Positions 433 to 62,243 of a stretch of 64,000 nucleotides of DNA are shown here, piece after piece. The notes below the pieces were generated by a model, which made no database searches, was not told the DNA's origin, and worked only from the letters and a program-made list of their open reading frames with translations. Source of the DNA: Octopus sinensis (Eukaryota). The number at the start of each line of letters is the position of its first letter. Position 1 is the first letter of the stretch. The position numbers and the translations under genes were made by a program. The stretch spans positions 59,210,001 through 59,274,000 of the forward strand of contig NC_043010.1 in NCBI RefSeq assembly GCF_006345805.1, given 5' to 3'.

Positions 433-3351
433 ATGTTCCTGTCGTTGTCCATTGTATTATCAATGGTCCAGTGTGTGCTGACCATAGACCTTACCTACCA
501 TGTGGAAGAAGAAAGAAGTCCAGGAACATATGTAGCAGACATTGCTGCCGATTCTAAACTTTTAGACAATGTTAAACCATCTGACCAACATTTGATAACA
601 TTCAGTCAATTCAAACGAAAGGTGGCACAGTTATTTAACATCACCAAAACAGGTAAACTGTACACTGCTCAGACACTGGATGCAGAAGATCTCTGCACAT
701 TCAACAAAGAATGTTCCAGAACTATGAAGGTTGTTGTCAATAAAGGAACCAGTGTTTCAAAAATATTAAAAATCAAGATAGTAATAGAAGATATCAATGA
801 CCATGAACCAAAATTTCCTATGAGAAATGTCAATATGCTGTTCAGTGAAGACATTGGTAAAGGTGCAAAAAGATCAATACCCAATGCTATGGACAAAGAT
901 GTAGGATTTCAAAATTCCTTAATACAATATAAATTAAAATCAAAGAATGGAGAACCATTCTCTCTATCAGTGTCTAAAAGAGCTGATGGTATTTCTTCGC
1001 TTAATATAGTTTTAAAAGAATCATTAGACAGAGAAATCAAAGATACGTATTTATTACAGGTCATAGCTAAAGATGGAGGTTCACCAGCAAAACAAGGGAT
1101 TTTGAATATAAATATTTCTGTAATAGATGTTAATGATAACCCACCAGAGTTTTCTAAACCTCTATACAATATATCCATACAAAGTACACATCATAAGTCT
1201 AAACCCATCATTGTTTTGTCTGTAACAGATGCTGATTCTGGTGAAAATGGTAAAATTTTTTTTCATTTCAGTCCCAAGACATCAGATCTAGCAAAAAGCT
1301 ATTTTCAGTTAAATGAAACCAACGGGAATATTTTATTAAGCAAATATACTAGTCTGAGTAAAAAAAAAACCTACGAATTGTTTATAGAAGCCAGAGATGG
1401 GGGCACTCCACCCTTTAGTTCCATAGCAACAGTTCTGGTAAATGTTATCAACCAACACAATAATCCTCCATCTATTGATATTGATTATGTTTCTGCAATC
1501 AATGACAACACAGCTACCATTTCTGAAAACATCAAAGTCGGTAGTTTCATTGCTTATGTGATGGTCACTGACAATGATGTGGGACAAAATGGAGAGGTCA
1601 GCTGTGATATCAAACATGATACGTTCAAACTACAGTCAATGGGATCTAAAGAATATAAAATCATTCTAAACAAACCAGTGGACAGAGAAACACAAGGACA
1701 CTATAACATTCCTGTCTCTTGTCAAGATAAAGGATTACCTCCTCTTAAAAGTGTTAAAAGCCTCTCTATCCAAGTGACTGACATCAACGATGTACAACCA
1801 CAGTTTACCAAAGATACATTCCAATTCCTCACCTACGAAAACAAAGATAAAGACTTCCCTATTGGTTTTGTCAATGCCACTGACCCTGATCTTGGATCTG
1901 CTGGACAACTCACATATTCTCTGCTGCGTAAAGAAAAATCCAATCTCCCATTTCTCATCACCAGTTATGGCTTCATTTCAGCGACCATGTCATTGGACAG
2001 AGAGAAACAAGATGTGTATAAGTTTGAGGTTTTTGTCAAAGATAATGGAAGCCCATCTCTGAATGACACAGCGAATGTTGTTGTTGAGATTCTAGATCAA
2101 AATGACAATGCTCCGTATTTTACATATCCTAGTAGTGACCCTTACACGCTAAATGTGCAGTACCATCCGCAGAGTAAGAGTGACATCACAGTTTTGAGAG
2201 CCTCTGATGGGGACAGTGGAAACAATGCTTTCCTCAGATATGCAATCATACAAGGAAATGATAAACAGTTGTTTAGTATGAACTCACACAGTGGTGCTTT
2301 ATCCTTCTCCAGACAAGTTTATCTAAATGATGCTGGAAGTTATGGGCTGGTGTTTGTTGTGAAGGACAGTGGTAGTCCAGTTCAGTCGTCAACAACTAGT
2401 GTCACTTTGGTATTGGCTGTTAGTAACGAGACGTCACCAATGTCGAAAAGTGGACCTTTACAATCTTCAGGTCGGGTCCATATGACATGGGTTATTATCA
2501 TTGTATCATCAGCAGTAATAATATCAGTGGCTATTGTTGTTTCTATAACGCTGTGTATTATGAAATGTATTAAACACAGAGATAACACAGCTGCTTCCAC
2601 AAAGAATACAGCCTACCAAGGTAGAGCAGAGATGAAACAATTGTTGTACCAGACTAACACTTCTGTTGCTATGTCGAGGAATGCAGAAGAGATGGTGAAG
2701 CGGAATATCTATTCTGAGAGATCCAAGAGTGAATGTTATGCAGAAGGTCAGCTACAGAACAAATATGAATCTTCAGTTCAGTCGAGAACTTTACCAAAAC
2801 CTACCCCAGTAAGTGGAAACATTAATATTTTCTCTCTGTAAAAGTGAACAATGAAATCTCTTTGAATATGTTTTAACTTCAATAATACATTCCAATATTA
2901 AATTGTTCTCTTTCCATGTTGATTGTAACTTCCATTGTTTGGTGTCTTCTCACATTTCTTTATCGTTTGTTTGTCAACAGAAATACTGTCAACCTGTTGT
3001 GGTGACATCAAGTGATGATGCTGTGGAAGATAATGCTACTATGGTTTGTAACTATACATCAGATACAATGTCATCCAAGAGAAGTGGTAGACATGGAGAC
3101 TTGAAACATTACGAAGAAATACCAGGAGTATCAGGTTAGCAACTGCATTAGCAATACTTTGCAAATAATGTTAAGAAGTACAAATTGCAGTACACTGTAA
3201 AAATAATGTCACCATTTTTTCCATGTATTAACATATTGATATCTTGGCAAAATCTATTTTCATTTGAATTTCAGAGCAAAGTTTATATAAAAACAACGAT
3301 GCATCTACTTCGAAAGATTCCAGTGAAGAAACACCAGTGAAACATGTCTAA
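433..3351 (+). CDS. PCDH: Protocadherin gene 1 (6 EC + TM + cytoplasmic tail), join(433..2808,2981..3134,3275..3351), ~868 aa
   Basis: Signal peptide; cadherin motifs (DINDHEP, LDRE, DxD, DGG, DxNDNxP); EC1 C-X5-C (CTFNKEC); TM VIIIVSSAVIISVAIVVSITLCI. Acceptor ttttag|381, donor CCA|gtaagt 2809 (phase 0), acceptor caacag|2981, donor G|gttagc 3135 (phase 1), acceptor ttcag|3275, frame open to TAA 3351 (...SSEETPVKHV*). Same layout in all paralogs. Confidence 0.93.
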
Positions 3352-3979
3352 TCCAAATACTGAACTCATCTGACTACTCTGTGAATTTACAACATATTCC
3401 AATCATTACACATGCAATCTCAAAATGAACACTCATTATTATACATACTGGATAGTGCTATATAAATGTAATGACAGGGTTGTCAACAATTAAGCTGTTA
3501 TTCTGATAAGTAAACAGAAGTTACGCAAATGAATACATTTCCTATGTGTCTATATGTTCCTGTTTTATCATCATATTATGTTTGGTTTATATCAGTATCA
3601 AGCAATATATCTTTACACTTAATGAAAAATACATTTTATTAAACGGCAAAACTCTGTTCTTTTTTTTTTTGCCAAATGTTATTCATTTAGGAATTCTGTG
3701 ATTGCCACAAGATTATTGCTCCTTGAAGATAGATATAGTTCATCTAATCTCCCCCAGGATTTGTATGGCACTTCTTGTGTAGACCATGAAAATCAATGTC
3801 AATCCTAATAGATCTTTATTTAAATACTCTCAGAATTTACTTTTCTTTTTATTCTTTTGATGTTTATAAAATATATTACCAGTTAAGTAGAGTAATCTGG
3901 TTAATTTATTACACATTCGTCACAAATTTGTATCTCTCTGCCCATGTCCAGTATCATTATTTCTGTTATTGCTATTCTA

Positions 3980-4120
3980 CATTCTGAGTTCAAATTTCAC
4001 TGAAGTGTACTTTGCCTTTCATCCTTTCGGGCTTGATGAACTAAGTACCAGTTGCATACGGGGTTTGATTGACTCGCCTCCTCCCCACAAATTTAAGGCC
4101 TTTTTCATATAACAGAAAAG
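3980..4120 (+). mobile_element. SINE fragment (family best seen at 31080-31310; further partial copies ~17525-17630 -, ~29435-29650 -, ~45570-45750 +, ~46255-46440 +, ~53310-53450 +, ~63490-63620 -)
   Basis: B-box-like gagttcaaat followed by shared core actttgcctttcatcctttcggg...taagtaccag found repeatedly on both strands. Boundaries approximate. Confidence 0.65.
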
Positions 4121-4438
4121 ATTTAGTATTATTATTATTATTATTATTAACATTATATATTAATATAGATATGATGCTATAAATCTTTTGTAAATGTTAG
4201 TAATCGCAGCTTCTTTATTTCATTTAATTTAACTATATGCAATATGTAAGTATAAATATGTATGAATTTAAATAAGGAAATTAACATTAGACTCAAGAAA
4301 ATATAATTAAACATTAAGATAATTATAATTTTCAGTAATCTTCATGTGAATAGATGAACATTACACAATCTCACTTTCTTCCTTATGTTAGTCTAAGGTA
4401 TTTTGCTTACTGAAATCAATATTAAATAGGGTATCTCC

Positions 4439-4878
4439 ATTGGTCTTCTGTTTAGATCATTCAACCAATCAGATTCTCACTGAAACATAGAAAGAAATCA
4501 CTGACAAAGATTACCATCCACATTACTGATGTTATTAAACCAGACACTAATGTTTAACAATAGAATATTGCATTTACACAAACATATATATATATATATA
4601 TCTATATATTTAAATAATCATTGATACCAGGAAACAAACATCCTCTTTAAAGATAAATACATTATCAGATGGACGTACTCCCACAAAACATTCAACTTCA
4701 GTGAGACATGCAACCCTCTCCTAGCAGCAGACTCTCTGCCTGACGTGCTACACTACTCCATCACCATAACAGCCATTGTCACACCATTACAGCAGCACTT
4801 ACAATGGATCTTTCTACAACAATACATCTTTCTCTTTCTCACTGAATAACCAATGATATAATTATTAAAAAGGTAAGT
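4439..4878 (+). promoter_or_regulatory. Putative promoter + non-coding leader exon for gene 2 (module copy A)
   Basis: ATTGG 4439, CCAAT 4465 (21 nt spacer); 167 nt conserved block 4706..4872 containing TGACGTG; ends AAG|GTAAGT. Repeated once per unit; the downstream large exon has an acceptor ~50 nt before its ATG. Confidence 0.75.
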
Positions 4879-7764: not shown

Positions 7765-7795
<31 letters not shown>

Positions 7796-11580: not shown

Positions 11581-11823
11581 AATTATTTTATTTGCTATTT
11601 TCTTTGTAATTAACCTTGGCTTAATTATTCTATGTTTACTTTTATGATAATTATTTCTATATATTTTCTTAAAATAGTATTATGTATCAGAGATAACAGA
11701 CCTATGAGTGTTTTAATCTATTTTGAAATGAGATTGTAATAATTTATGAAATATATTTCTCCTTTAGGTTCAATCTACTTATCTACAATTCTTTAATCAG
11801 TAACAACAGGCAGCAGCAACAAA

Positions 11824-14800
11824 ATGCTCCTGTCATTGACCTTTGTATTGTCGCTGGTCCACTGTGTCCTGACCATAGACCTCACCTACCATGTGGAAGA
11901 AGAAAGAAGTCCTGGAACATATGTAGCAGACATTGCTGCCGATTCTAAACTTTTAGACAATGTTAAACCATCTGACCAACATTTGATAACATTCAGTCAA
12001 TTCAAACGAAAGGTGGCACAGTTATTTAACATCACCAAAACAGGTAAACTGTACACTGCTCAGACACTGGATGCAGAAGATCTCTGCACATTCAACAAAG
12101 AATGTTCTAGAACTATGAAAGTTATTATAAAGAAAGTGGCAACATTCACAAAAATATTAAAAGTCAAAATAGTAATAGAAGATATTAATGACCATGAACC
12201 AGAGTTTCCAGAAAAACAAATCACTCTACATTTTGAAGAAGGTGATGGGAGAGGAATGAAAAAATCAATTCCAAATGCCATAGACAAAGATGTGAGTTAT
12301 CAAAATTCTTTCATTGAATATAAACTTAAAAAATCTGATGATTCATTTTCCCTGACAGTTTCTAAAAGAGCTGATGGTATTTCATCATTAAAGATTGTTT
12401 TAAAAGAAAAATTAGACCGAGAGATAAAAGAGAAATACAATTTAGAAGTTATTGCTAAAGATGGAGGTTCTCCATCTAAACAGAGTGTGTTAAATGTTGA
12501 GATTGTTGTTGAAGATGAGAATGATAATCCACCTGTATTTTCAAAACCCCTTTATAATATTTCCATTAGAACTACACACGATAAGACAAAACCCATTCTT
12601 ACTTTGTCAGTGACAGACAAAGATATTGGATCCAACAGTAAAATTACTTTCCATTTCAGCCCCAAAACTTCTGATTTGGCAAAGAAATATTTCGAATTGG
12701 ATAAAAAGATTGGCAAAGTATTTTTATCTAGAATTTCTAGTTTGAATGAAAAAAATACTTTTGAATTATTTATAGAGGCCAGAGATGGAGGTAAGCCACC
12801 ACTCAGTTCCATAGCAACTGTTCTGATAAATGTTATCAACCAACACAACAATCCTCCATCTATTGATATTGATTATGTTAATGCAATCAATGACAATACA
12901 GGTACCATCTCTGAAAAGATCAAAGTCGGTAGTTTCCTTGCTTATGTGATGGTCACTGACAATGATGTGGGACAAAATGGAGAGGTCAGCTGTGATATCA
13001 AACATGATACATTCAAACTACAGTCAATGGGATCTAAAGAATATAAAATCATTCTAAACAAACCAGTGGACAGAGAAACACAAGGACACTATAACATTCC
13101 TGTCTCCTGTCAAGATAAAGGATTACCTCCTCTTAAAAGTGTTAAAAGCCTCTCTATCCAAGTGACTGACATCAACGATGTACAACCACAGTTTACCAAA
13201 GATACATTCCAATTCCTCACCTACGAAAACAAAGATAAAGACTTCCCTATTGGTTTTGTCAATGCCACGGACCCTGATCTTGGATCTGCTGGACAACTCA
13301 CGTATTCTCTGCTGCGTAAAGAAAAATCCAATCTCCCATTTCTCATCACCAGTTATGGCTTCATTTCAGCGACCATGTCATTGGACAGAGAGAAACAAGA
13401 TGTGTATAAGTTTGAGGTTTTTGTCAAAGACAATGGAAGCCCATCTCTGAATGACACAGCGAATGTTGTTGTTGAGATTCTAGATCAAAATGACAATGCT
13501 CCGTATTTTACATATCCTAGTAGTGACCCTTACACGCTAAATGTGCAGTACCATCCGCAGAGTAAGAGTGACATCACAGTTTTGAGAGCCTCTGATGGGG
13601 ACAGTGGAAACAATGCTTTCCTCAGATATGCAATCATACAAGGAAATGCTAAACAGTTGTTTAGTATGAACTCACACAGTGGTGCTTTATCCTTCTCCAG
13701 ACAAGTTTATCTAAATGATGCTGGAAGTTATGGGCTGGTGTTTGTTGTGAAGGACAGTGGTAGTCCAGTTCAGTCGTCAACAACTAGTGTCACTTTGGTA
13801 TTGGCTGTTAGTAACGAGACATCACCAATGTCGAAGAGTGGACCTTTACAATCTTCAGGTCGGGTCCATATGACATGGGTTATTATCATTGTATCATCAG
13901 CAGTAATAATATCAGTGGCTATTGTTGTTTCTATAACGCTGTGTATTATGAAATGTATTAAACACAGAGATAACACAGCTGCTGCCACAAAGAATACAGC
14001 CTACCAAGGTAGAGCAGAGATGAAACAATTGTTGTACCAGACTAACACTTCTGTTGCTATGTCGAGGAATGCAGAAGAGATGGTGAAGCGGAATATCTAT
14101 TCTGAGAGATCCAAGAGTGAATGTTATGCAGAAGGTCAGCTACAGAACAAATATGAATCTTCAGTTCAGTCGAGAACTTTACCAAAACCTACCCCAGTAA
14201 GTGGAAACATTACATTTTCTCTCTGTAAAAGTGAACAATGAAATCTCTTTGAATATGTTTTAACTTCAATAATACATTCCAATATTAAATTGTTCTCTTT
14301 CCATGTTGATTGTAACTTCCATTGTTTGGTGTCTTCTCACATTTCTTTATCGTTTGTTTGTCAACAGAAATACTGTCAACCTGTTGTGGTGACATCAAGT
14401 GATGATGCTGTGGAAGATAATGCTACTATGGTTTGTAACTATACATCAGATACAATGTCGTCCAAGAGAAGTGGTAGACAAGGAGACTTGAAACATTACG
14501 AAGAAATACCAGGAGTATCAGGTTAGCAACTTCATTTGCTATTTTCTACCTGGATATCACCTCAAAGATAGACCTGTATTATGAAGAATTACTAAAATAT
14601 ATATAAATTTGTTAATGAATAAGTATTACATTTATATTCCAGATTCTCATGCATGCAAGAAGTCATTCTTAAACTTATATTTTACATCATTTCCACATTA
14701 TTCAGTTTGCCTGGTGACATATTCCAGAACATGATTATCTTATTAGTTCCATTTGAAATGTTTTTTTATCAATTTGATTCTAATATTATGATATGAAGAA

Positions 14801-14947
14801 CTCAAAAACATATTTTCTATTGTTATTCCAAATCAAAATTAAAAAAAGAAAAAAACATAATATTTTTGTATCTAAATTCCAGATCAAAGTATATATAAAA
14901 ACAATGGCACCTCTACATCAAAAGATTCCAGTGAAGAACACCAGTGA
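11824..14947 (+). CDS. PCDH: Protocadherin gene 2, join(11824..14196,14368..14521,14883..14947), ~863 aa; most divergent EC2-EC3; last exon has a 1-nt deletion
   Basis: 805 aa ORF with the same motifs; acceptor ctttag|11768; donor gtaagt 14197; paralogous small exons. Last exon reads DQSIYKNNGTSTSKDSSEEHQ* because gaagaaacacca is gaagaacacca here. Confidence 0.92.
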
Positions 14948-15525
14948 AACATGTCTAATTATTTTATCAATGAGACATAACTACATTTCTCTATGTAAAT
15001 GTAAAGACAATGTGATAAATACAGAAACGCTACTGACACACATTCTGTGTTTTCTGAACTCTACATAGTATTGCAGATTTCCAAAGGACAGAGTTTTCTG
15101 AAAAGCATCCACATTTCTCCAGTTAAATGCAACATTCTATAATTTAAACTGATATGAAACATTTCAAATTTAATTGAAGGTTTTATGTAATTTATAAGGC
15201 TTCTTACTCTATTTTTAAGTTAGTTCAAATGAAAAACCAAAATTACCAGATTTTTATTGCAATTCTGATATAATGCTCCAAATATAATTCTATAAACTAA
15301 AACCGGGTTACAAACAAAACAAATAGTGTTCAAAACTTAGTAATTTTAATTAAATCATTAGCACTAATATTTTATAATGCTTTACAAAAAATAAACTGAA
15401 AACTTATTCTAGTTATTAGCATTAAGGTGGAGGAAGACATGATCAATACCAAATTCTTTTGTTTGTTTGTTTTTGTGGGGTTTCTTGCCTCTTCAAAACA
15501 AATCACTGTAAAAACAGAACTCTTC

Positions 15526-16615: not shown

Positions 16616-16650
<35 letters not shown>

Positions 16651-22041: not shown

Positions 22042-22073
<32 letters not shown>

Positions 22074-22610: not shown

Positions 22611-22634
22611 GAATCTATTAATGTAGATTATATA

Positions 22635-23060: not shown

Positions 23061-23335
23061 GGTACATCATGTAAATGGATGATTAATAGATGAAAACCTA
23101 TTTATTGATGCAAAAGCTGAGTGGTTCAAGAAGTGGAAGATCATAGCAGACATGAATTCCTCCTCATACCACTGAGACTAGTTGTTTCTAAGATGAGAGA
23201 TTCTAGGATCAAAATTGATAGAGAGATGTAAGAAATATTTTGCAGTATTATATAATTGATGAAAATATATTTCCTTTTTCAGGTTCAATCCTCAACACAC
23301 TTGTGCATCTTTAACAAACATACAACAACAACAAC

Positions 23336-26300: not shown

Positions 26301-26345
26301 ACGTCGAAAGATTCCAGTGAAGAAACTCCAATCAAACATGTTTAA
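23336..26345 (+). CDS. PCDH: Protocadherin gene 3, join(23336..25711,25883..26036,26269..26345), ~868 aa
   Basis: 806 aa ORF; acceptor tttcag|23283; conserved splice sites; last exon DQNLYKNNDATTSKDSSEETPIKHV*. Confidence 0.93.
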
Positions 26346-31525: not shown

Positions 31526-31681
31526 AAAGAATTTGAGTGTGTATATATTTCAATGTACCTGCCTGATAAATTATGAAAAAAAAATATTCATTATTAATAA
31601 AAATTGATTATATATTTTTATTTTAGGTTCATATATAGGCATATCTGGACATCCTTTGGTGAACTGTCAATGAACAACAAT

Positions 31682-34600: not shown

Positions 34601-34777
34601 CATTCTTATTTTATGATTTTCGATTTAAATTTTGGGAACCAATTTAATTCAAACATGATTATATGAATAACTTTAAAAATATTTTCTATCTTAATTTCAG
34701 ATCAAAGTATTTATAAAAACAATGATACATCAACATCAAAAGATTCTAGTGAAGAAACACCAGTGAAACATGTCTAA
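31682..34777 (+). CDS. PCDH: Protocadherin gene 4, join(31682..34057,34230..34383,34701..34777), ~868 aa (alternative in-frame ATG at 31670)
   Basis: The ORF-track start (31604) lies in the intron upstream of acceptor ttttag|31627; ATG 31682 is homologous to the other starts; last exon DQSIYKNNDTSTSKDSSEETPVKHV*. Confidence 0.92.
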
Positions 34778-40210: not shown

Positions 40211-41203
40211 TGTGTAGATTGTTAGTAACAATGAATCAATTCTTTAAGAATTCAGGAAGAGGGTATGAGATGTTTTGAGCCGCCTGCCTCTTTGGCATCA
40301 TTAATTTGATGCTCACTTATATGGCATCAGACACTTTGTCTCCAGACCCTTCTGACACTGAAAATTTTGTTTTCTATTCTTGTCGACAACTAATTCATAA
40401 TCATAATTACCAACCTTTATTAAACTTTCTGCTTCATTTTGTGTATATGATAGCAATTGAAATATTGACGAAACATGGAAAGGAAAGAATTTTCTCTCAG
40501 TGGATTTTCTATGTCTTTGACTAAGTAGAATTAACTCAGAATTTCAATTTTAGCCCTTTTAGCAGAAAAACTGGGGAGAGAGGACAGTGGGGGAGAGAAG
40601 AATGAAAATGTATTAAATTACCCCAATTACACAAACACATCTCTTTCCCTCCCCCTCATCTCTCTCTCTCTCTATTTATGTGTGTGAGTATATTTCTCTT
40701 TAGGTGTGTACGGGGAGAGGGAAAGTGTTTATATCAGTCTGTTTCAAGTAATAAGTTATGATCTGTCTCTCTCTGTCTATCTATCTGTCTGTCTGTGTAA
40801 CATGCACATGTATGTGTGTGTGTGGGCGTGAGAGTGTGTACCTCCAGTGTCAAAAATTACAGTCATGTCTTGGGTTCCATGTCCAGTCATCTATGCCAAA
40901 TCGTCATCATTCAAAAGCTCAATCCAGTTGACATACTCAATAAAGATAAGGTGCTTTTGGAACCATTTTTATTTCCATACTTTGGTTCTTCTTGCACAAT
41001 AAAGATGGATTAAAGATATTTGTAATTTGGATGAATGGTCTTAAGGAAAGAAGGTCAACGTGTAGCAAATATTTTGCAATATCAATGTACATTACAGTAT
41101 TTTAAATGATTTTATGTCTTATAATAATTCATGAAAATATATTTCATTTTCAGGTTCAATCCTCTACATACATGTGCATCATTAACAAACATATAGCTTC
41201 AAA

Positions 41204-44200: not shown

Positions 44201-45098
44201 GGCTCCATCATAGATGATCCATCCACACTTCTGTTGAGTATTTGCTCACATTTCCTACTAGAACCTAGTGATGGCACATTTTTATTGAGATTTACTTTAT
44301 GTACATCTTTGGACAACTTTCTCCTCCTTACGTAACTTCACTGAACAATCGTTTCTGTAGGTGGGCTTAAATGCACACATGATTCCAAAACTTGTGCATT
44401 TTCAGCTGAAGAACTAAAGATATGTCCCATGCTCATAAGAAGATAGGCTAAATTTCAACCTAAGTGAAACCAAAGTTTTTACATCAACAAGCGTAAACAT
44501 GGCCCAGTTATTCAGATCTATGGATAAATGGTGGAAGATGCAAAACACTTTCGGTAGTTAGGTAGTCACCTACCACAAAACAAGTATTGATAATAAATTG
44601 AGTCAGTGCAGCTTTTGGTTGTCTCAGAAGATGGGTACATGAAAACCATGAGCTGGGACAAATAACTGAACTTATGACACAGTTACTGTGCTGACTCTTG
44701 TATGGCTTTAGAATCTGGACAAGTTATTGTCCATATCTTCATAAAGTGAAAGTATATCACCAGTCTTAGGAACATCTGGCTTGGCAGAACAGATGAGGAA
44801 TATCAGAAAGTTCAAGTAAGCTAATATTGTGTTCTCTGATACCAGGATTAATAAATATAATAATGTTACCAATACTTAATAATCAGTTTACATTTATATT
44901 CAGTTTGTTAAAAATATAAGTACTCAGAATTCAGTTTTTATTATATTCTTTTTTCCATGTGCTTCTTACAGACCAAACATTTAAAGTATTTTGTAAAATT
45001 GACTTTGTATTGAAATTTCAGATCAAAGTATATATAAAAACAATGATACATCTAAATCAAAAGATTCCAGTGAAGAGACACCAGTGAAACATGTCTAA
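41204..45098 (+). CDS. PCDH: Protocadherin gene 5, join(41204..43579,43752..43905,45022..45098), ~868 aa
   Basis: 802 aa ORF; acceptor tttcag|41154; last intron expanded to ~1.1 kb by a LINE-like remnant; last exon DQSIYKNNDTSKSKDSSEETPVKHV*. Confidence 0.92.
44100..44820 (+). mobile_element. Old LINE (RTE-like) remnant in the last intron of gene 5
   Basis: Degenerate translation ...ETKV...VEDAKHFR.LGS...SAAFGCLRR...ESWT resembles the FxYLGS / AFGxL / LLYGxExWT motifs; present only in this paralog. Confidence 0.55.
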
Positions 45099-47432: not shown

Positions 47433-49693
47433 TTCTCTTTAATCTCTTTTATAAATCTCATTTGATGCAATAAATCTCACTGAACTTGAAACAATATTGT
47501 TCTAACATATTTGATGTTGACAAGAGAATAAAAGAATTAATATAATACACTCATATTTTATGGTAGTGTTGTTCATATTTTTTTATGCCATAATTAATTG
47601 GATGACGTTGATAAAAGTATTTCATATTTCAACTTTATTCTGTTGAAACACTAACATCCATGGCTGTAGAATATTTGATGCATGAACAGATTAATAACAG
47701 TAGGCAGCTGTCTGTATAACGTAGTGTAGCAGTGTTTTTGTTCAGAAGATGAAATTTTGTGTCTGTATTTATGGAAAGTTACAAAAAGTTGTTTGATATA
47801 GAATATGAAGAAATATACTATAGTCTTTTTAAATCTGTTTTATAATTTGTGGATTCATAGCATTGATGCAGTAACATTGTGTTACAGATTTTTAATGTGG
47901 AATAATGGTCAATAGCAAAGGAAATTAGTGAATAGAAATGGTGGCTTGTTGTAGAAAAGACAAGGACTAGTTTAGTGTAGAAAAGGCAGAATGCTGGCAA
48001 TATCTTTGTATGTTTCCTTTAAATATATTTATGTCTAAATCATAGTAATTTTTAATGTTTTTAAACTTAATTTTTTTGTATGTGTGTGATTTAATTATTT
48101 GTGTAATTTCTGTCTAAAATTTCAGTTATATATATTTTTTGTCAAATATTTCCAATGATGAAATTCTGTTACAGTATGTGAACATTTAAAACCCAATATT
48201 TTACAGAAGTTAACGATCAAGTGTATTTTCAATACAAATTTAATAGATCATATTGAAAGCAATCTGTCTTTAGGAGGATTTTCATCACTGTAAGGCATGT
48301 CTGATGAGTTGGAAATTTCTAATTTTGCTTAGTTATTACGGAAGGACTTGGTGCTTTTTTATTATTATTGTATTCTATGACCCATTGTAACGTTTCTATT
48401 TAAATTATAATGTTCTATGTATAAATATGTTTTTATATAATTTGCATAAACTGCCACTTTTTATAATCTGTAGTCATCAAAATTTACTTAATCTATAACA
48501 CATTAGCTATTTTTTCTCATACGATCTTTAATCTTCAATATTAGTCAATACATGTCATTTTCTAATCTTTATTAGTTGGCTATTTCTGAGAAACAAGGAT
48601 AAACACTTATGTTTAAGAAAACTATTGCAAGCAGACTTTTAATTACATGAAACTATATTAAATTTTATAGTTTATTTCTGAATTCATTTCTTTAGATATG
48701 GGCTTTTATTGTGATTTTATTTTCATGATTATTACTTCTATTTAGACCTGGTTTTAATTATACATTAATTACTTCTTTATCTTTTAAATATAATCACCGA
48801 TAACACGTTTAGTTTCAGAACAAAACTTCACACTCGTAATTATAGGAGTTATTTTAATGTACCAGAACATTGAGAGATGTGGTGACTCAGTTATACATAC
48901 AGCAGTTCTTTTTATATATATGCATAGGAGAAAACATAAGATTCTTTCTTTCTTACAAAGAGAAAACCTTACCCTGAGGTTCACATCCTCCAATGCAAGT
49001 TGTCATAAATGAGTGCAGCCCTTGCATGGGCTCTTTTTCCAATGAGTTCCCATGTCTAAGTCTCTTGCCTCTGTCAAGAGCCACAACTTTGCTAACACAG
49101 AAATTTTCAAAGAAGATGACCCCTGATGTGTGATGGAAAGCAGAATGATTCCAGTAGACGTGTCCCTAGAGAATACACATATCAGATTAATGAATATAGA
49201 AAGAAATATAAATTTGTCAAGTTCATTGTATATTTCATTTTAGGGGTGAACTGTGGGAAAACTTTTGACTGAGTCAGAGAGATTTCATTAGCTATATTTT
49301 TTCTTGACCAAACCTGAGGGATTTCTTTAACTATTGTTTGGTGTTTCAGTATATAAATTTAGGGAGTGTACAAGAAAAGTAATTGTGTTTCACATATCAA
49401 ATTTCAATATTAGCTAGACATTTTATTGAACAACATTCTTGTAGTTTTATGAATAAGAGATTTTTTATATTATGGGAAGGTCATGAGTATTACTAATTCT
49501 TCAATAAAGTTACCTAATACCAACTTAGTAATTCAGATATTATTATATTTTAGAGTGCTGGCCTGGTGCAGTTTTCCTTTCCAAATCTGTAAATATATTT
49601 ACTTGTCTGATAATAAGAATTTAAGAAAGTATATTTCTGTTTTAGGTTTATTCTTCAACTCTCCTGAACACCTTTATCTGGTTCCAACACAAC

Positions 49694-52600
49694 ATGTTAC
49701 TGTCGTTGTCTATTGCATTGTCGCTGGTCCACTGTGTCCTGACCATAGACCTTACCTACCACGTGGAAGAAGAGAGAAGTCCAGGAACCTATGTAGCAGA
49801 CATTGCTGCCGATTCTAAACTCTTAGACAATGTTAAACCATCTGACCAACATTTGATAACATTCAGTCAATTCAAACGAAAGGTGGCACAGTTATTTAAC
49901 ATCACCAAAACAGGTAAACTGTACACTGCTCAGACACTGGATGCAGAAGATCTCTGCACATTCAACAAAGAATGTTCCAGAACTATGAAGGTTGTTGTCA
50001 ATAAAGGAACCAGTGTTTCAAAAATATTAAAAATCAAAATTGTTATAGAAGACATCAATGACCATGAACCAAAATTTCCTAAGATTAAAATCAATATGCA
50101 GCTTGCAGAGGATATTTCAAAAGGTTCAAAAAGATCGTTACCAAATGCCATAGACAAGGATGTAGGATTTCAAAACTCATTAATACAATATAAATTAAAA
50201 TCAAAGAATGGAGAACTATTCTCTCTGTCAGTGTCTAAAAGAGCAGATGGTATTTCTTCTCTTAAAATAGTTTTAAAAGAATCATTAGACAGAGAAATCA
50301 AAGATACATATTTATTACAGGTCATAGCTAAAGATGGAGGGTCACCAGCAAAACAAGGAATTTTAAACATAAATATTTCCATAACAGATGTTAATGACAA
50401 CCCACCTGTATTTTCTAAACCTCTATACAATATGTCTATACAAAGTACACATCACAAATCTAAACCCATCATTGTTTTATCTGTGAGTGATGCTGATTCT
50501 GGTGAAAATGGTAAAGTTACTTTCCATTTCAGTCCAAAGACATCAGATGTAACAAAAAGCTATTTTCAGTTAAATGAAACCAGTGGAAGCATTTTATTAA
50601 GGGAATATTCAAAATTAGGGAAAAAGAAAACTTATGAATTGTTTATAGAGGCCAGAGATGGAGGTATTCCTCCTCTCAGTTCCATAGCAACTGTTCTTGT
50701 GAATGTCATCAACCAACACAACAATCCTCCTTCTATTGACATAGATTATGTTTCTACACAGAATCACAACACAGCTACCATCTCTGAAAACATCAAAGTC
50801 GGTAGTTTCATTGCTTATGTGATGGTCACTGACAATGATGTGGGACAAAATGGAGAGGTCAGCTGTGATATCAAACATGATACATTCAAACTACAGTCAA
50901 TGGGATCCAAGGAATATAAAATCATTCTAAACAAACCAGTGGACAGAGAAACACAAGGACACTATAACATTCCTGTCTCCTGTCAAGATAAAGGATTACC
51001 TCCTCTTAAAAGTGTTAAAAGCCTCTCTATCCAAGTGACTGACATCAACGATGTACAACCACAGTTTACCAAAGATACATTCCAATTCCTCACCTACGAA
51101 AACAAAGATAAAGACTTCCCTATTGGTTTTGTCAATGCCACTGACCCTGATCTTGGATCTGCTGGACAACTCACATATTCTCTGCTGCGTAAAGAAAAAT
51201 CCAATCTCCCATTTCTCATCACCAGTTATGGCTTCATTTCAGCGACCATGTCATTGGACAGAGAGAAACAAGATGTGTATAAGTTTGAGGTTTTTGTCAA
51301 AGACAATGGAAGCCCATCTCTGAATGACACAGCGAATGTTGTTGTTGAGATTCTAGATCAAAATGACAATGCTCCGTATTTTACATATCCTAGTAGTGAC
51401 CCTTACACGCTAAATGTGCAGTACCATCCGCAGAGTAAGAGTGACATCACAGTTTTGAGAGCCTCTGATGGGGACAGTGGAAACAATGCTTTCCTCAGAT
51501 ATGCAATCATACAAGGAAATGCTAAACAGTTGTTTAGTATGAACTCACACAGTGGTGCTTTATCCTTCTCCAGACAAGTTTATCTAAATGATGCTGGAAG
51601 TTATGAGCTGGTGTTTGTTGTGAAGGACAGTGGTAGTCCAGTTCAGTCGTCAACAACTAGTGTCACTTTGGTTTTGGCTGTTAGTAACGAGACATCACCA
51701 ATGTCAAAGAGTGGACCTTTACAATCTTCAGGCCGGGTCCATATGACATGGGTTATTATCATTGTATCATCAGCAGTAATAATATCAGTGGCTATTGTTG
51801 TTTCTATAACGCTGTGTATTATGAAATGTATTAAACACAGAGATAACACAGCTGCTGCCACAAAGAATACAGCCTACCAAGGTAGAGCAGAGATGAAACA
51901 ATTGTTGTACCAGACTAACACTTCTGTTGCTATGTCGAGGAATGCAGAAGAGATGGTGAAGCGGAATATCTATTCTGAGAGATCCAAGAGTGAATGTTAT
52001 GCAGAAGGTCAGCTACAGAACAAATATGAATCTTCAGTTCAGTCGAGAACTTTACCAAAACCTACCCCAGTAAGTGGAAACATTAATATTTTCTCTCTGT
52101 AAAAGTGAACAATGAAATCTCTTTGAATATGTTTTAACTTCAATAATACATTCCAATATTAAATTGTTCTCTTTCCATGTTGATTGTAACTTCCATTGTT
52201 TGGTGTCTTCTCACATTTCTTTATCGTTTGTTTGTCAACAGAAATACTGTCAACCTGTTGTGGTGACATCAAGTGATGATGCTGTGGAAGATAATGCTAC
52301 TATGGTTTGTAACTATACATCAGATACAATGTCATCCAAGAGAAGTGGTAGACAAGGAGACTTGAAACATTACGAAGAAATACCAGGAGTGTCAGGTTAG
52401 TAAATGTATTTGCTATATTTTGCTCCGAAATTGTCTGAAATGTAAATATTTATTGACAACTAAATTTAAAAGTCTATAATACTGTCCAATATTTGGTTAT
52501 TAGTTTATGTATATACATAAATGTATCCCCTTGTTATTTCAAGAACACTTTGTAGTTATTTGTTCGAGCAATATGTTTGTATCTTCCCTTTTATAATGTT

Positions 52601-52856
52601 TGAAAGAATTTGACAAAATGTTATCTCTCTGATTTCATATATCTGACAAAATGCCTCTTTCCAGAGATGGACCTTTTGATATATACTGTTCTGATGGCAA
52701 GGGTGGGGTTAATATCGTAGAAATTGATGTTCACTTCCATGATTTTGTAAATTTTATTTATTTATTTTCTGTTTCTCAGATCAAAATATTTATAAAAACA
52801 ATGATAATTCTACATCAAAAGATTCCAGTGAAGAAACACCAGTGAAACATGTATAA
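49694..52856 (+). CDS. PCDH: Protocadherin gene 6, join(49694..52069,52242..52395,52780..52856), ~868 aa
   Basis: 802 aa ORF; acceptor ttttag|49646; last exon DQNIYKNNDNSTSKDSSEETPVKHV*. Confidence 0.93.
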
Positions 52857-56800: not shown

Positions 56801-58012
56801 GTAGTGAGACATGAGTTAATTTCTTAATAAACATCAAGATATTTAAGATCTGGTATTTGGCTGCAAATCTAAATTTCCAATGAGTTTCTCTAGTGGTTGT
56901 GAGGCAAGGGTAGAGATCCCATAGTTGTATGAATGCTGTTTTCTGATCGGCATTAATTCAGCAATGTTTTGTTGTCAGGACAAACAACTGATGTGTTTAG
57001 ATCTCTATGTCTTCTCAGGAACTGATTTTTGCCTTTCGAAACTCGCATTTCACCACTTGGTCACGTGTATCCTTCCATGGCCAGCAGTGATTGAATGGTT
57101 CGGGTGTAGCACGACTGTGTTATGTCACCACAACAAAATAGTGCTGACATGTCTCACTACAGACTGACAACAAAGAGATTATACAAAATATGTGTAATGC
57201 TGTATGATTATGAGTGCTGGGTAATAAATGTTGATGGCCTGAGTTGGTGAGAAAGAAGTAAATTCCATGTTGGTTGTGCATTGTGACTCTGAATGGAAGA
57301 CAGTGAAAAAGAACTAAACATTAAAGTTGCATGTATGGAAATAAATTGATTGATGAACAAGATGTAATTTATCAAAGATTGCCTACATCATTTTGACCCA
57401 TCCTGTCATAAAAGGTAATCTGTTCAGATCAATATTTTTAGACAACTGTTGAACAGAATATACAAGCACACCAAATCATTTAAGTTGACAGTTTTTAAAT
57501 TTTTTAATTTGTTATTCGTAAACTATGTTAAGAAGAAAAAAAGATAATAGAAGTCATAGTTGAAAGACATGCTTCTGTGTCATCAAAATCAAATAATATG
57601 CAGTTAGATCCTATGTGATCTGTCATCCTCATGGATCATATACAATCTGATTACATGTTGTACGATTTTGACAATATACAAACTGATAAATTAGATACAG
57701 AACTATTTTTTCAGCTAGTAACTTAGTATATTTTACAATAACCAGATTAAATACATATCCTCATATGTAATTACTCAATTTCTTTAGTGGTGTAGCATGT
57801 ATTTCTTTTGAATATATGATCGCATTTCTGCTTTTGGATACTAAATTCAGAATGTTAGCAATTGTTTTTCTTTTTCTCCATTCAAATCTATTATTATTGT
57901 GCAATTCTGAATCATATCAGCCCAAGTAATGAAAATATTAAAGTTGTATTTCTTTTTTCAGACTCAATCATCTGCATATCTGGAAATCTTCACCTTGGAC
58001 CAACAATTCAAC

Positions 58013-61000
58013 ATGCTCCTGTCATTGTCCATTGTATTGTCACTGGTCCACTGTGTCCTGACCATAGACCTTACCTACCATGTGGAAGAAGAGAGAAGTC
58101 CAGGAACGTATGTAGCAGACATTGCTGCCGATTCTAAACTTTTAGACAATGTTAAACCATCTGACCAACATTTGATAACATTCAGTCAATTCAAACGAAA
58201 GGTGGCACAGTTATTTAACATCACCAAAACAGGTAAACTGTACACTGCTCAGACACTGGATGCAGAAGATCTCTGCACATTCAACAAAGAATGTTCTAGA
58301 ACTGTGAAAGTTATTATTAAGAAAATGGATAGTTTCACAAAAATATTAAAAGTCAAAATTGTAATAGAAGACATCAATGACCACGAACCAGAGTTTCCTA
58401 TAAAGAATGTGAATATACAGTTTGGTGAACATGATCGCAAAGGTTCTGACAGATCAATACCCAATGCTATGGACAAAGATGTTGGATTTCAAAATTCCTT
58501 AATACAATATAAATTAAAATCAAAGAATGGAGAACCATTCTCTCTATCAGTGTCTAAAAGAGCTGATGGTATTTCTTCTCTTAAAATAGTTTTAAAAGAA
58601 ACATTGGACAGAGAAGTCAAAGATACATATTTATTACAGGTGATAGCTAAAGATGGAGGGTCACCAGCAAAACAAGGTATTTTGAATATAAATATCTCTG
58701 TAACAGATTTGAATGACAACCCACCAGTATTTTCAAAACCTCTGTATAATGTATCCATACAAAGTACACATCATAAATCCAAACCCATCATTGTTTTGTC
58801 TGTAACAGATGCTGATTCTGGTGAAAATAGTAAAATTTCTTTCCATTTCAGTCCAAAAACATCAGATGTAACAAAAAGCTATTTTCAGTTAAATGAAACC
58901 AATGGAAACATTTTATTAAATAAATATACAAGTTTGGGGAAAAAGAAAACCTATGAATTGTTTGTAGAGGCCAGGGATGGAGGCAGCCCTCCACTCAGTT
59001 CCATTGCAACTGTTTTGGTAAATGTCATCAACCAACACAATAATCCTCCCTCTATGGATATAGATTATGTCTCTGCACTCAATTATAACACAGGTACCAT
59101 CTCTGAAAACATCAAAGTTGGTAGTTTCATTGCTTATGTGATGGTCACTGACAATGATGTGGGACAAAATGGAGAGGTCAGCTGTGATATCAAACATGAT
59201 ACATTCAAACTACAGTCAATGGGGTCTAAAGAATATAAAATCATTCTAAACAAACCAGTGGACAGAGAAACACAAGGACACTATAACATTCCTGTCTCCT
59301 GTCAAGATAAAGGATTACCTCCTCTTAAAAGTGTTAAAAGCCTCTCTATCCAAGTGACTGACATCAACGATGTACAACCACAGTTCACCAAAGATACATT
59401 CCAATTCCTCACCTACGAAAACAAAGATAAAGACTTCCCTATTGGTTTTGTCAATGCCACTGACCCTGATCTTGGATCTGCTGGACAACTCACATATTCT
59501 CTGCTGCGTAAAGAAAAATCCAATCTCCCATTTCTCATCACCAGTTATGGCTTCATTTCAGCGACCATGTCATTGGACAGAGAGAAACAAGATGTGTATA
59601 AGTTTGAGGTTTTTGTCAAAGACAATGGAAGCCCATCTCTGAATGACACAGCGAATGTTGTTGTTGAGATTCTAGATCAAAATGACAATGCTCCGTATTT
59701 TACATATCCTAGTAGTGACCCTTACACGCTAAATGTGCAGTACCATCCGCAGAGTAAGAGTGACATCACAGTTTTGAGAGCCTCTGATGGGGACAGTGGA
59801 AACAATGCTTTCCTCAGATATGCAATCATACAAGGAAATGATAAACAGTTGTTTAGTATGAACTCACACAGTGGTGCTTTATCCTTCTCCAGACAAGTTT
59901 ATCTAAATGATGCTGGAAGTTATGAGCTGGTGTTTGTTGTGAAGGACAGTGGTAGTCCAGTTCAGTCGTCAACAACTAGTGTGACTTTGGTGTTGGCTGT
60001 TAGTAACGAGACATCACCAATGTCAAAGAGTGGACCTTTACAATCTTCAGGTCGGGTCCATATGACATGGGTTATTATCATTGTATCATCAGCAGTAATA
60101 ATATCAGTGGCTATTGTTGTTTCTATAACACTGTGTATTATGAAATGTATTAAACACAGAGATAACACAGCTGCTGCCACAAAGAATACAGCCTACCAAG
60201 GTAGAGCAGAGATGAAACAATTGTTGTACCAAACTAACACTTCTGTTGCTATGTCGAGGAATGCAGAAGAGATGGTGAAGCGGAATATCTATTCTGAGAG
60301 ATCCAAGAGTGAATGTTATGCAGAAGGTCAGCTACAGAACAAATATGAATCTTCAGTTCAGTCGAGAACTTTACCAAAACCTACCCCAGTAAGTGGAAAC
60401 ATTACATTTTCTCTCTGTAAAAGTGAACAATGAAATCTCTTTGAAATGTTTTAACTTCAATAATACATTCCAATATTAAATTGTTCTCTTTCCATGTTGA
60501 TTGTAACTTCCATTGTTTGGTGTCTTCTCACATTTCTTTATCGTTTGTTTGTCAACAGAAATACTGTCAACCTGTTGTGGTGACATCAAGTGATGATGCT
60601 GTGGAAGATAATGCTACTATGGTTTGTAACTATACATCAGATACAATGTCATCCAAGAGAAGTGGTAGACAAGGAGACCTGAAACATTACGAAGAAATAC
60701 CAGGAGTTTCAGGTAAATAACTATATTGATCATGTTTTACTTTGATCTCATCTCAAATGTAAACTTTAACGTCAACTAATTTGTAATTTAGTTTGAGTAA
60801 TATCATCATCATCGTTTAACGTCCGTATTGTTTTTATACTTGGGGAAACATGAAACATTATGAAAAAATACCAGAAATATCAGGTTAGTAAGTAAATCAG
60901 TAATATTTTTGTTATTATATCATTTCAGATATAGAGATTTAATAGCAATTATTCATAGAAAATATTATATGCTCAAATAGGGTGTTTGAAAGAAATTTGG

Positions 61001-61249
61001 GAATTAATATTGATATATTTTACAATAATTTTCAAGAAATGTTGATTTTCTTTCTGTTCACATACTTCTAAATATATTTATCTGAATGTCTTTTTTTCCC
61101 TTTGTTTGCAAATATATACAAACAGGTCCTATTTTTAATACTGTATAGTCCTATTTTGTTTCTAAATTCCAGATCAAAATATTTATAAAAACAATGATAA
61201 TCCCACATCAAAAGATTCCAGTGAAGAAACACCAGTGAAACATGTATAA
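58013..61249 (+). CDS. PCDH: Protocadherin gene 7, join(58013..60388,60559..60712,61173..61249), ~868 aa
   Basis: The ORF-track start (57929) is intronic; acceptor tttcag|57962; homologous ATG 58013; last exon DQNIYKNNDNPTSKDSSEETPVKHV*. Confidence 0.92.
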
Positions 61250-61827
61250 CTATATTATTGATGAGACATAATTTCTAATTCCTATATAGATATAGGATAG
61301 AGATCATTCAGTACACATATCAATATAGACATCTCTCTTATCTCTTCTGTTCATTCCCAAAGACTGAAGGTTACATAAATCCTCACCATTTCTCAGATAA
61401 ACATGAATTTCTCTCAATAAATAGAGTTCATTCTGATTCTTAATGAGATATTTCAGTGTAATAATATTAAGCTTATATAGATTTAATATAGATTTTAATA
61501 TAGATTTAAAAACTGAAATATCATCTCCACATAATTTTATTTCTCTCTGTAAAATATAACATAGAAATTTATTAACATCTATTAACTATAATGAAGATAC
61601 AAACTGAAGAAATATTGTCCTCTCATTTCCAAATTTGGTATTGTAGACAATGACTTCAAAATAGTTAAATAGTTTACAAAAAATGACCTAAAAAATTATA
61701 TCTAGTTATCAATATTATTTGTGTCCTCAAGAAAGTTACGAATGTTATACATCCTGTGTTCCCCTATATTAAAGCCTCCTGCTTACTTTTTTTTTTTTTT
61801 TAAATCAACATTAAAACAAATATTGCC

Positions 61828-62243
61828 ATTGGTGTTCTGTCTAGACCATTCAACCAATCAGATTCTCTTCAAAACATAAAAAGAAATCACTGACAAAGAT
61901 AAGCCTTCCCATTACTGATGTTATTAAATCAAACAATTATGATTAACTATAGGTTATTGTAGCTATTTGAATATGTAAATGTTTATGTAAACATCATTTT
62001 GAAGGATAAATTCATGCAAAATATTATTAGATGGATGTACTAATAACATTGAACATACAACTTCAGTGACACATGCAACCCTCTCCTAGCAGCAGACTCT
62101 CTGCCTGACGTGCTACACTACTCCATCACCATAACAGCCATTCTCACACCATTACAGCAGCACTTACAATGGATCTTTCTACAACAATACATCTTTCTCT
62201 TTCTCACTGAATAACCAATGATATAATTATTAAAAAGGTAAGT
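61828..62243 (+). promoter_or_regulatory. Putative promoter + leader exon for an eighth protocadherin beyond the window (copy G)
   Basis: ATTGG 61828, CCAAT 61854; block 62071..62237; donor 62238; no cadherin exon follows within the window. Confidence 0.7.

Follow-up and report, generated by a model that had tools for sequence, protein, structure and literature searches.

A 24-gene octopod protocadherin array with near-identical constant parts and a variable tract predicted to form an antiparallel trans-binding surface

The clustered protocadherins (Pcdhs) of vertebrates, organized in alpha, beta, and gamma groups, carry six EC repeats and the TM in one large exon and use one promoter per isoform, features in common with the octopod array described here. 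A further shared feature is that EC4-6 are homogenized and EC2/EC3 escape conversion (PMC4978886, citing Noonan 2004). Vertebrate clustered Pcdhs are reported to pair promiscuously in cis via EC5-6 (PMC8901172); in their dimers, the loop of EC1 that bears position 106 in the present array contacts the A-strand loop of EC4 (PMC5001838), and subfamily specificity is described as being set by EC1:EC4 salt bridges (PMC5106212). The cephalopod Pcdh expansion is considered independent of the vertebrate clusters (PMC4978886, PMC10084454). Coleoid tandem sub-arrays, as reported by Albertin et al. 2022 (PMC9068888) and Jiang et al. 2022 (PMC9795677), likewise consist of head-to-tail multi-exon full-gene duplicates without shared constant exons. 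For these sub-arrays, whole-gene trees had prompted the suggestion of "homogenization through gene conversion" (PMC9068888), and an octopod Pcdh burst was dated by whole-gene JC distances in a study whose main text does not contain the term "gene conversion" (PMC9795677). Tandem arrays with conversion proposed for cephalopods, and the escape of EC2/EC3 in vertebrates, are therefore already known. The coleoid accounts are not known to give domain boundaries, homogenization of the first exon, a cross-genus test, or EC1-EC4 covariation; all four are given here. Domain-restricted conversion or interface covariation was not found in the literature searched on cephalopod Pcdhs, although Albertin 2015, Wang and Ragsdale 2017, Noonan 2004, and supplements may mention domain-level variation. 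A vertebrate-like neuronal barcode role of cephalopod Pcdhs has so far been argued mainly on gene number. Non-clustered delta-type Pcdhs, described as lacking cis pairing (PMC10084454), provide the closest sequence matches to EC1-4 of the array, the top PDB matches being the protocadherins 6vg1 and 6vg4 (Pcdh-10; E 1e-85 and 4e-82). Antiparallel EC1-4 binding has been deduced for non-clustered Pcdh families (PMC5001838), and delta-type genes are dispersed (PMC6339937), in contrast to the octopod array of 24 genes under concerted evolution.

The window analyzed here is a stretch of 64,000 nucleotides from Octopus sinensis, in which an earlier note had seen seven near-identical full genes with a variable middle segment. 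This is confirmed, and the array extends to 24 near-full protocadherin genes, plus fragments, arranged head-to-tail on one strand of the source genome over ~257 kb. The window holds seven of them (genes 11-17), each with one long ORF. Pfam Cadherin_2 (PF08266) and Cadherin repeats (PF00028) are matched in the two window genes that were scanned, as expected of protocadherins, and the nearest named proteins are from Octopus and Argonauta. Ectodomain and TM share one large exon, as in vertebrate clustered Pcdhs, followed in the window genes by an intron of 170-172 nt and an exon of 154 nt; wherever a gene is fully modelled, it has four exons.

381..3351, + strand: Pcdh gene 11, first in the window; large exon 381-2808 (ATG 433), 172-nt intron, exon 2981-3134, last exon 3275-3351; its non-coding first exon and promoter lie left of the window
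11768..14958, + strand: gene 12 (variable class B); large exon 11768-14196 (ATG 11824), exon 14368-14521, last exon from 14883, 1-nt gap near 14936
23283..26345, + strand: gene 13; large exon 23283-25711 (ATG 23336), exon 25883-26036, last exon 26269-26345
31627..34777, + strand: gene 14; large exon 31627-34057 (ATG 31682), exon 34230-34383, last exon 34701-34777
41154..45098, + strand: gene 15; large exon 41154-43579 (ATG 41204), exon 43752-43905, last exon 45022-45098
49646..52856, + strand: gene 16; large exon 49646-52069 (ATG 49694), exon 52242-52395, last exon 52780-52856
57962..61249, + strand: gene 17; large exon 57962-60388 (ATG 58013), exon 60559-60712, last exon 61173-61249
61828..62237, + strand: gene 18, with promoter and non-coding first exon inside the window and the coding exon beyond its right edge

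With its closely related, complete multi-exon genes in head-to-tail order, the locus conforms to a coleoid tandem Pcdh sub-array. Every gene has its own cytoplasmic exons, in contrast to the vertebrate clusters, and the 154-nt exon and last exon are present as own copies in 22 of 24 genes, genes 23 and 24 having diverged 3′ ends; judged on gene layout, there are no variable exons spliced to shared constant exons as in vertebrate alpha and gamma clusters. As regards the earlier proposal that the locus achieves the same code without shared exons, the pattern parallels the homogenization described inside vertebrate variable exons (PMC4978886) and is no replacement for shared constant exons.

Homogenized and variable tracts alternate along each gene, as exemplified by gene 11:

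481..723, + strand: homogenized N-terminal part of EC1 (aa 17-97); dN 0.000, dS 0.086 among the seven genes
724..1536, + strand: variable tract, aa 98-368 (EC1 FG-loop region, EC2, EC3, start of EC4); dS 0.57, dN/dS 0.21 over aa 98-362
748..750, + strand: codon 106, in the EC1 beta6-beta7/FG loop by alignment to Pcdh-alpha7; its charge co-varies with codon 366
1528..1530, + strand: codon 366, in EC4 directly after the conserved A-strand Glu; partner of codon 106
1537..3134, + strand: homogenized tract (rest of EC4, EC5, EC6, TM, cytoplasmic part, 172-nt intron, 154-nt exon); JC distance 0.006-0.013

Nucleotide diversity among the seven genes, taken in 60-nt windows, is 0.01-0.016 at aa 31-90 and 0.10-0.38 at aa 91-370, falls to 0-0.026 between aa 371 and the end of the 154-nt exon, intron included, and reaches 0.6 past that exon. 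Accordingly, dS over aa 363-792 is 0.033 versus 0.57 over aa 98-362 (0.034 versus 0.54 for constant and variable parts in 23 array genes). The resulting ~17-fold contrast indicates stronger homogenization than in Xenopus groups, for which ratios of 2-5-fold are tabulated (PMC4978886). The non-coding intron of 170-172 nt is ~99% identical (JC 0.012). A right-hand boundary at aa ~363 had been proposed; it lies nearer aa 368, residues 363-368 being variable (N366K in gene 12). The constant tail does run through the 154-nt exon as stated in the earlier note, but a further last exon of ~25 codons is not homogenized (median aa identity 0.85).

The orthologous array of Argonauta shows the same tract boundaries as that of Octopus and a constant sequence of its own. 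Protein identity in the constant region amounts to 0.993 within the source Octopus genome, 0.988 within 22 Argonauta rows, and 0.895 (maximum 0.907) between them; the respective values for the variable region are 0.845, 0.728, and 0.766. In a constant-region tree (FastTree, clade support 0.84-0.96), the 22 Argonauta and the 36 Octopus sequences each form one clade. The variable-tract tree (a quick IQ-TREE) contains two classes with both genera in each, and monophyly of Argonauta is rejected for this tract (p-AU 1.15e-7). None of the 40 near-fixed genus differences falls within aa 98-368, and 69 of the 70 variable columns shared by both genera lie within aa 97-366. The same profile is found in a second, eight-gene array of the source genome that is 74% identical to the first (pS from EC1a to EC6: 0.04, 0.38, 0.40, 0.31, 0.26, 0.05, 0.035, 0.03), and the O. 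vulgaris protein set has the constant/variable pattern of the source genome. Of the 5253 pairs formed by other octopod Pcdhs, 563 score at least 0.93 in EC5-6 and below 0.75 in EC2-3; the reverse pattern does not occur. Conversion that spares EC2/EC3, as known from vertebrate clustered Pcdhs, is also a feature of this locus. Concerted evolution of the constant parts, claimed in the earlier note, is strongly supported by the 17-fold dS contrast, the genus-specific constant sequence, and the trans-generic variable lineages, and ongoing gene conversion likely keeps the first exon, the N-terminal part of EC1, and the EC4-to-cytoplasmic region ~99% identical.

Two explanations would dispense with conversion. 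A recent duplication burst (8-14 Ma type) followed by fast adaptive divergence of EC2/EC3 would suit a whole-exon JC distance of only 0.06, the kind of distance from which such a burst was deduced for one octopod Pcdh cluster (PMC9795677). It is already largely refuted and very improbable: synonymous rather than non-synonymous sites hold most of the variable-tract divergence, the variable lineages and 69 variable columns are common to Argonauta while constant parts are genus-specific, and long introns and promoters are 20-27% diverged. Collapse of the constant tracts during assembly or polishing, raised beforehand as a possible refutation, is barely credible. Base accuracy may be imperfect, given 1-2 nt indels scattered in genes 3, 5, 7, 12, and 19, and the read-level check was made with Logan contigs. 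However, both the O. vulgaris and Argonauta protein sets repeat the pattern, and of the 80 sites that vary within the constant coding tracts, 59 fall on third positions and 33 are common to several copies (GC3 0.35-0.36 versus 0.245). In a DNA-type run, constant-tract contigs have depths of 736 and 623 compared with 15-22 for four intronic contigs, which is a hint, the run possibly not being independent of the assembly.

Homogenization extends to a non-coding first exon situated 2-10 kb upstream, a further difference from the vertebrate clusters:

4439..4471, + strand: paired inverted CCAAT-like boxes in the core promoter of gene 12, with a putative promoter function
15526, 26856, 35275, 47000, 53478, 61828: further copies of the paired boxes
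4706..4872, + strand: homogenized 167-nt non-coding first exon of gene 12; RNA-type contigs begin near 4687
15791-15957, 27107-27273, 35509-35675, 47260-47426, 53750-53916, 62071-62237, + strand: other copies of this exon, by sequence comparison

Of the shared promoter module per gene proposed earlier, an invariant part exists; as a new observation, this part is a spliced 167-nt non-coding first exon, 99.4% identical across the array, whereas the core promoter is diverged (73% identical). The copy of the module that ends at 62237 is part of gene 18, which follows gene 17. One RNA-type contig joins the first exon to the coding exon, splice sites 381 and 3134 of gene 11 are supported by RNA-type contigs (3134 as a loose end), and the 171-nt intron of gene 12 is spliced out in two of three RNA-type runs. 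These transcript data are Logan contigs from runs assumed to be of RNA type and give splice joints only. The promoters of vertebrate clustered Pcdhs each carry a CSE (CGCT core)/CTCF element. The promoters of the array have paired CCAAT-like boxes and may lack such an element: among 23 promoter modules of 580 nt, searched with simple patterns, the CGCT core occurs in one and the CTCF pattern in none.

A second new observation is that the two ends of the variable tract co-vary, positions EC1-106 and EC4-366 bearing complementary charge. Linkage between EC1 loop and EC4 start reaches an r2 of 0.49 in 20 class A genes, as opposed to 0.05-0.08 for other domain pairs. D366 accompanies K/R106 in 13 of 13 array rows and D/E106 in 1 of 19; in 103 other octopod Pcdhs, the figures are 52 of 52 and 1 of 33. 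Within the array, genes 3, 4, and 9 combine R106 with D366, and gene 20 has the opposite arrangement, D106 with K366. In a mean-field DCA of these 103 proteins, based on a shallow alignment (Neff ~49), 106/366 ranks first of 53,281 pairs, and EC1-EC4 and EC2-EC3 together account for 19 of the 30 highest-ranked inter-domain pairs (10 expected). Independent contrasts yield 9.7 complementary changes versus 0, of 15 (p~0.002). Plain MI over EC1-EC6 places the pair 16th of 107,111, with no enrichment of EC1-EC4 pairs in the top 200, and the EC1-EC4 r2 amounts to just 0.11-0.14 when Argonauta is taken by itself. Since EC1 type also weakly tracks signal peptide/5′UTR (p=0.0015) and EC3 (p=0.0015) within the array, part of the EC1-EC4 linkage reflects shared descent. 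An EC2-130/EC3-307 pair is high in MI but lacks a clear residue pattern and is not claimed, and a 113/407 charge pair, with three swapped rows in 140 that likely represent one event, is not counted. The covariation fits the antiparallel EC1:EC4/EC2:EC3 trans-dimer of vertebrates with its charge-pair specificity, the octopod interface being a prediction from sequence.

Within the variable tract, the sequence resembles a mosaic of short, shuffled cassettes (dN/dS ~0.2), likewise a new finding. Linkage within the tract is short-range; four-gamete failures are partly explicable by recurrent mutation at dS ~0.5. Positive selection was not found in sliding windows of 15 codons, none of which exceeds a pN/pS of 0.47. 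Identity between class A variable tracts goes up to 94%, with a median difference of ~15% of residues, and the EC2 DE loop, a specificity element in vertebrates, is near-invariant in the array; isoform-level discrimination may therefore be weak. The earlier claim of variable recognition domains gains its first direct sequence support from the charge covariation, but the tract is apparently shuffled by conversion and shows no amino-acid excess.

It seems probable (roughly 0.6) that the 24-gene array combines converted, near-identical parts with an old variable tract that begins at the EC1 FG loop, runs into the start of EC4, and would form a vertebrate-like antiparallel trans-binding surface. 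Long conversion tracts would sweep the constant parts, the variable tract would tolerate only short cassettes, and selection would preserve the match between the EC1 loop and its partner in EC4. With EC5-EC6, TM, and cytoplasmic parts identical, isoforms could pair freely in cis and signal equally, and an own promoter per gene could permit separate, possibly combinatorial expression and hence a neuronal self/non-self code. Specificity might operate by class (EC1:EC4 charge types combined with EC2/EC3 cassettes) and not strictly by isoform. Alternatively, conversion is real but its boundaries are a neutral, self-reinforcing accident in which the diverged middle blocks conversion, one conserved antiparallel interface serving redundant or class-level adhesion (dosage) with no isoform code. 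The low dN/dS and the small residue differences among class A isoforms suit this explanation, and the antiparallel EC1-4 interface is thought to be older than the Pcdh family split (PMC5001838), so that covariation need not imply a code. It is nevertheless rather unlikely, as Argonauta and the second array have these boundaries too, the EC5-6/EC2-3 asymmetry among octopod pairs is one-sided, and several 106/366 charge types are maintained within one array and across genera. Binding of another partner by the variable tract, be it a heterophilic ligand or in non-neural/immune recognition, is quite improbable. Conversion-shuffled cassettes are typical of immune and antigen families too, yet charge complementarity between EC1 and EC4 within one gene would be expected for a homophilic antiparallel dimer and not for binding to a foreign ligand. 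Non-neuronal octopus cells are reported to express ~13 Pcdh genes each, but Pcdh expression is higher in neurons (PMC9712504).

An extension of the favored antiparallel-surface reading, which we put forward tentatively, is that octopods independently evolved a conversion-run neuronal self-recognition code. Here, long tracts would unify first exon, cis-pairing domains, and tail, and short tracts would reshuffle ancient EC1-loop/EC2/EC3 cassettes, the 106/366 charge pair being kept matched by selection; CCAAT-box promoters rather than CTCF elements would choose isoforms, and the published "recent burst" would partly be a conversion artefact of an array predating the Octopus-Argonauta split. Each octopus cell is reported to express ~19-21 Pcdh genes, of which some are broadly active and others vary by cell type; these counts do not show stochastic choice (PMC9712504). 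Domain-restricted concerted evolution has arisen again in a separate expansion; whole-gene distances misdate such Pcdh clusters, and short-read or 5′-end expression counts are unassignable to genes through the constant tracts. The array yields testable predictions at the residue level (trans interface, charge-swap pair, class structure), and it contains natural isoform pairs that differ solely in the variable tract; genes 11, 14, and 16, for example, belong to one EC1/EC4 class but have different EC2/EC3, whereas genes 12 and 13 differ from gene 11 in class.

The protocadherin (Pcdh) array is a real feature of the 2.7-Gb Octopus sinensis genome (G000) and comprises 24 near-full genes on a single strand in 334 kb around the window (G000:C14:59,210,001-59,274,000), which itself holds genes 11-17. 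A search of this genome with the constant region returned at least 25 near-full matching places (97-100% identity) inside about 270 kb and, at 74%, at least 14 others, which lie some 1.1-1.5 Mb beyond or on small contigs; among the matches listed, the closest named proteins belong to Octopus vulgaris, O. sinensis, O. bimaculoides, and Argonauta hians. Genes consist of four exons. The first is non-coding and precedes the ATG by 2.3-10.2 kb; the large second exon encodes EC1-EC6 and TM, preceded by the signal peptide and followed by 82 cytoplasmic residues; an intron of 170-172 nt then leads to a 154-nt exon, and the last exon spans about 25 codons (3′ exon structure modelled in 22 of the 24 genes).

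The earlier note had proposed that the constant parts of these genes are homogenised while the recognition domains vary, and divergence within the array bears this out. Among the seven window genes, dS amounts to 0.086 for aa 17-97, 0.57 for aa 98-362, and 0.033 for aa 363-792, with dN at 0.000, 0.117, and 0.003; for 23 genes (the divergent gene 24 omitted) the respective dS values are 0.073, 0.54, and 0.034. The short intron has JC 0.012 (22 genes). Protein constraint cannot be the source of such low synonymous and intronic divergence. The last exon has diverged (amino acid identity 0.85). GC3 is 0.35-0.36 in the constant tracts versus 0.245 in the variable tract, a difference that would run in the direction of GC-biased conversion. 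Conversion is probably the process behind homogenisation, as already suggested for cephalopod Pcdh sub-arrays, which are published as full genes without shared exons (PMC9068888, PMC6339937); sparing of EC2/EC3 from conversion has been published for vertebrates (PMC4978886).

Assembly or polishing collapse is a very unlikely source of the identical tracts. The 80 variable sites of the constant coding tracts are mostly third positions (59/80), and 33 of them are common to at least two genes. In the DNA-type run X1, constant-tract contigs reach depths of 736 and 623 versus 15-22 in four intronic contigs, a contrast that serves as a hint only, since variants are lost in contigs, and X1 and the source of G000 may be related. 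Comparative data from Argonauta and O. vulgaris are the strongest argument against an artefact: constant regions are 0.993 identical within G000 and 0.988 within Argonauta, versus 0.895 from one to the other, and the variable tract gives 0.845, 0.728, and 0.766, respectively. This comparison used 22 Argonauta rows (one being half of a fused model whose other half is absent from the set), 12 from O. vulgaris, and the 24 G000 genes; the main protein cluster contributed 15 of its 24 members as listed, and cluster rows named O. sinensis were omitted as possible duplicates of G000's genes. The constant tree separates the genera completely (22/22 Argonauta, 36/36 Octopus), and none of 40 near-fixed genus differences falls in aa 98-368, while 69 of 70 columns with variants common to both genera lie in aa 97-366. 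The variable tree resolves two deep classes of 44 and 14 rows (SH 99 and 98), each containing both genera, and rejects Argonauta monophyly (p-AU 1.15e-7, 60 rows). The variable lineages are therefore older than the genus split, and the constant parts have been re-homogenised separately in each lineage. The same profile and boundaries recur in a second G000 array (eight distinct genes, a biased pick from nine stretches chosen by constant-region matches). A comparison of other octopod Pcdhs (5253 pairs) gave 563 pairs whose members resemble each other in EC5-6 and differ in EC2-3, and none with the reverse pattern. Other octopod subfamilies (the Pcdh groups L028-L035, P0018 with 29 rows, and P0051 with 21 rows) are EC2/EC3-variable and EC5/6-constant to differing extents, one group being constant from the EC1 loop and from EC4 onward and another in EC5-6 only.

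Within the variable tract of the 20 class A genes, site linkage (148 informative sites) drops from r2 0.20 at 1-15 nt to 0.11, 0.08, and 0.07, arriving at the independence level (0.055-0.058) by 120 nt, and 73-78% of mid-range pairs fail the four-gamete test. Near-identical cassettes of 15-20 residues recur in differing contexts and in both genera. We read this pattern as short-tract shuffling, to which recurrent mutation may contribute. Windows of 15 codons give no direct sign of positive selection in the tract, pN/pS reaching at most 0.47; it is highest in the EC1 loop, EC2 A/B strands (aa 121-150), EC3 aa 286-300, and the start of EC4.

Linkage in class A climbs again at 650-820 nt, and among amino acid sites the EC1 loop and EC4 start reach r2 0.49 versus 0.05-0.08 for every other domain pair. 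Residues 106 and 366 covary in charge. In 59 array rows, where the pair was first seen, K/R106 occurs with D366 in 13/13 cases, and D/E106 with K366 in 9/19, N366 in 9/19, and D366 in 1/19. The pair was then tested on outside rows of a 140-row alignment (7 window genes, 115 of the 120 listed matches, and 18 cluster members). Outside the array (103 rows, Neff 49), K106 accompanies D366 in 52/52 and acidic 106 an acidic 366 in 1/33; for charge anticorrelation, the pair comes third of 7881. The pair ranks 16 of 107,111 by plain MI-APC over EC1-EC6 and first of 53,281 by mean-field DCA over EC1-EC4, where 106-368 is third and 19 of the top 30 inter-domain pairs join EC1-EC4 or EC2-EC3 (10 expected). 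On a tree built without both loops, 15 independent pairs gave 9.7 same-way changes and no opposite one (median p 0.002). The second array agrees, with K106 and D366/E368 in 6/6 and E106 and A366/K368 in 2/2. Against this, the EC1 type in the array also weakly follows the signal peptide and EC3 (p=0.0015 each), and domain-level linkage is weaker in Argonauta alone. An approximate alignment to Pcdh-alpha7 places residue 106 in the EC1 beta6-beta7 loop and 366 directly after the EC4 A-strand Glu. As the two are four domains apart on one chain, cadherin geometry would allow contact only across an antiparallel dimer, and trans binding is probably antiparallel. In vertebrate dimers the EC1 beta6-beta7 loop contacts the EC4 A-strand loop (PMC5001838), and EC1:EC4 salt bridges keep heterodimers out (PMC5106212). 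The variable tract thus covers EC2 and EC3 together with those portions of EC1 and EC4 that match each other.

Judged from sequence, the array would work like the vertebrate clustered protocadherins, yet it lies outside those clusters. Identical EC5-6 would leave cis pairing free, as reported for vertebrates (PMC8901172), and a self/non-self role is conceivable. Octopus brain cells express a mean of 19 Pcdh genes, and neurons 21 (PMC9712504), which is compatible with this mechanism and not specific to it. An 8-14 Ma Pcdh burst was dated by whole-gene JC distances (PMC9795677); as tract values of 0.009 and 0.152 underlie a whole-exon JC of 0.060 in the present array, which may differ from the cluster dated there, whole-gene dates mix two clocks. 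Among the papers listed by the literature searches, none reports the domain-level pattern or the covariation for cephalopods.

The claim of a shared promoter module held in part. A first-exon module with splice donor is present in 23/24 genes, and among contigs from three runs presumed to be RNA, one splice record joins window 4687-4870 to 379-723; what is invariant is therefore a transcribed exon of 167 nt (median identity 99.4% over 23 genes), while the core promoter upstream, with paired inverted CCAAT-like boxes, is only 73% identical. In these runs, gene 12's 171-nt intron is skipped in two, and a loose contig end at 3134 runs on into last-exon sequence. Each promoter may be used separately. 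A CGCT core occurs in 1/23 modules and a simple CTCF pattern in 0/23. The hexamer TGACGT, which we take to be CRE-like, is found in 23/23 first-exon modules (e.g., window 4740-4746).

Further features of the array and its flanks are as follows.

G000:C14 59,072,037; 59,086,655-59,087,345; 59,345,657-59,346,117; 59,363,120-59,364,695: gene fragments on both flanks, several constant-region pieces still 98-99% identical to intact genes
G000:C14 59,081,796-59,083,886; 59,089,672-59,091,894; 59,105,821-59,107,743, minus strand: ORFs of 640-740 codons, presumably resembling non-LTR retrotransposon reverse transcriptases
Window 6461-6697, 7565-7753, 8762-8955, 10357-10695, 37509-37840: dispersed high-copy first-intron repeats, presumably SINE-like, with very high depth in X1
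Window 15050-21871 and 34809-40507: sequence following gene 12 and gene 14, with the promoter and first intron of gene 13 and gene 15, respectively; several kb align at 71-80%, marking an old sister duplication
Window 14883-14958: last exon of gene 12, ending early with one base missing near 14936

Contigs of another run, X9, insert an A near 14936, so the gap may be an assembly error or reflect paralog reads. Genes 5, 7, and 19 (G000:C14 59,146,406; 59,174,629; 59,285,114) lose their reading frame to single-base deletions, gene 3 has a shortened 154-nt exon leading to an early stop, and gene 1 lacks 108 nt, in frame, from its cytoplasmic part; these lesions denote either pseudogenes or base errors. 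Gene 24 at the array edge (G000:C14:59,352,328) has kept an EC1 and a distal tail of its own, and O. vulgaris and Argonauta carry apparent orthologs; its EC4-EC6/TM is nonetheless homogenised with the rest of the array.
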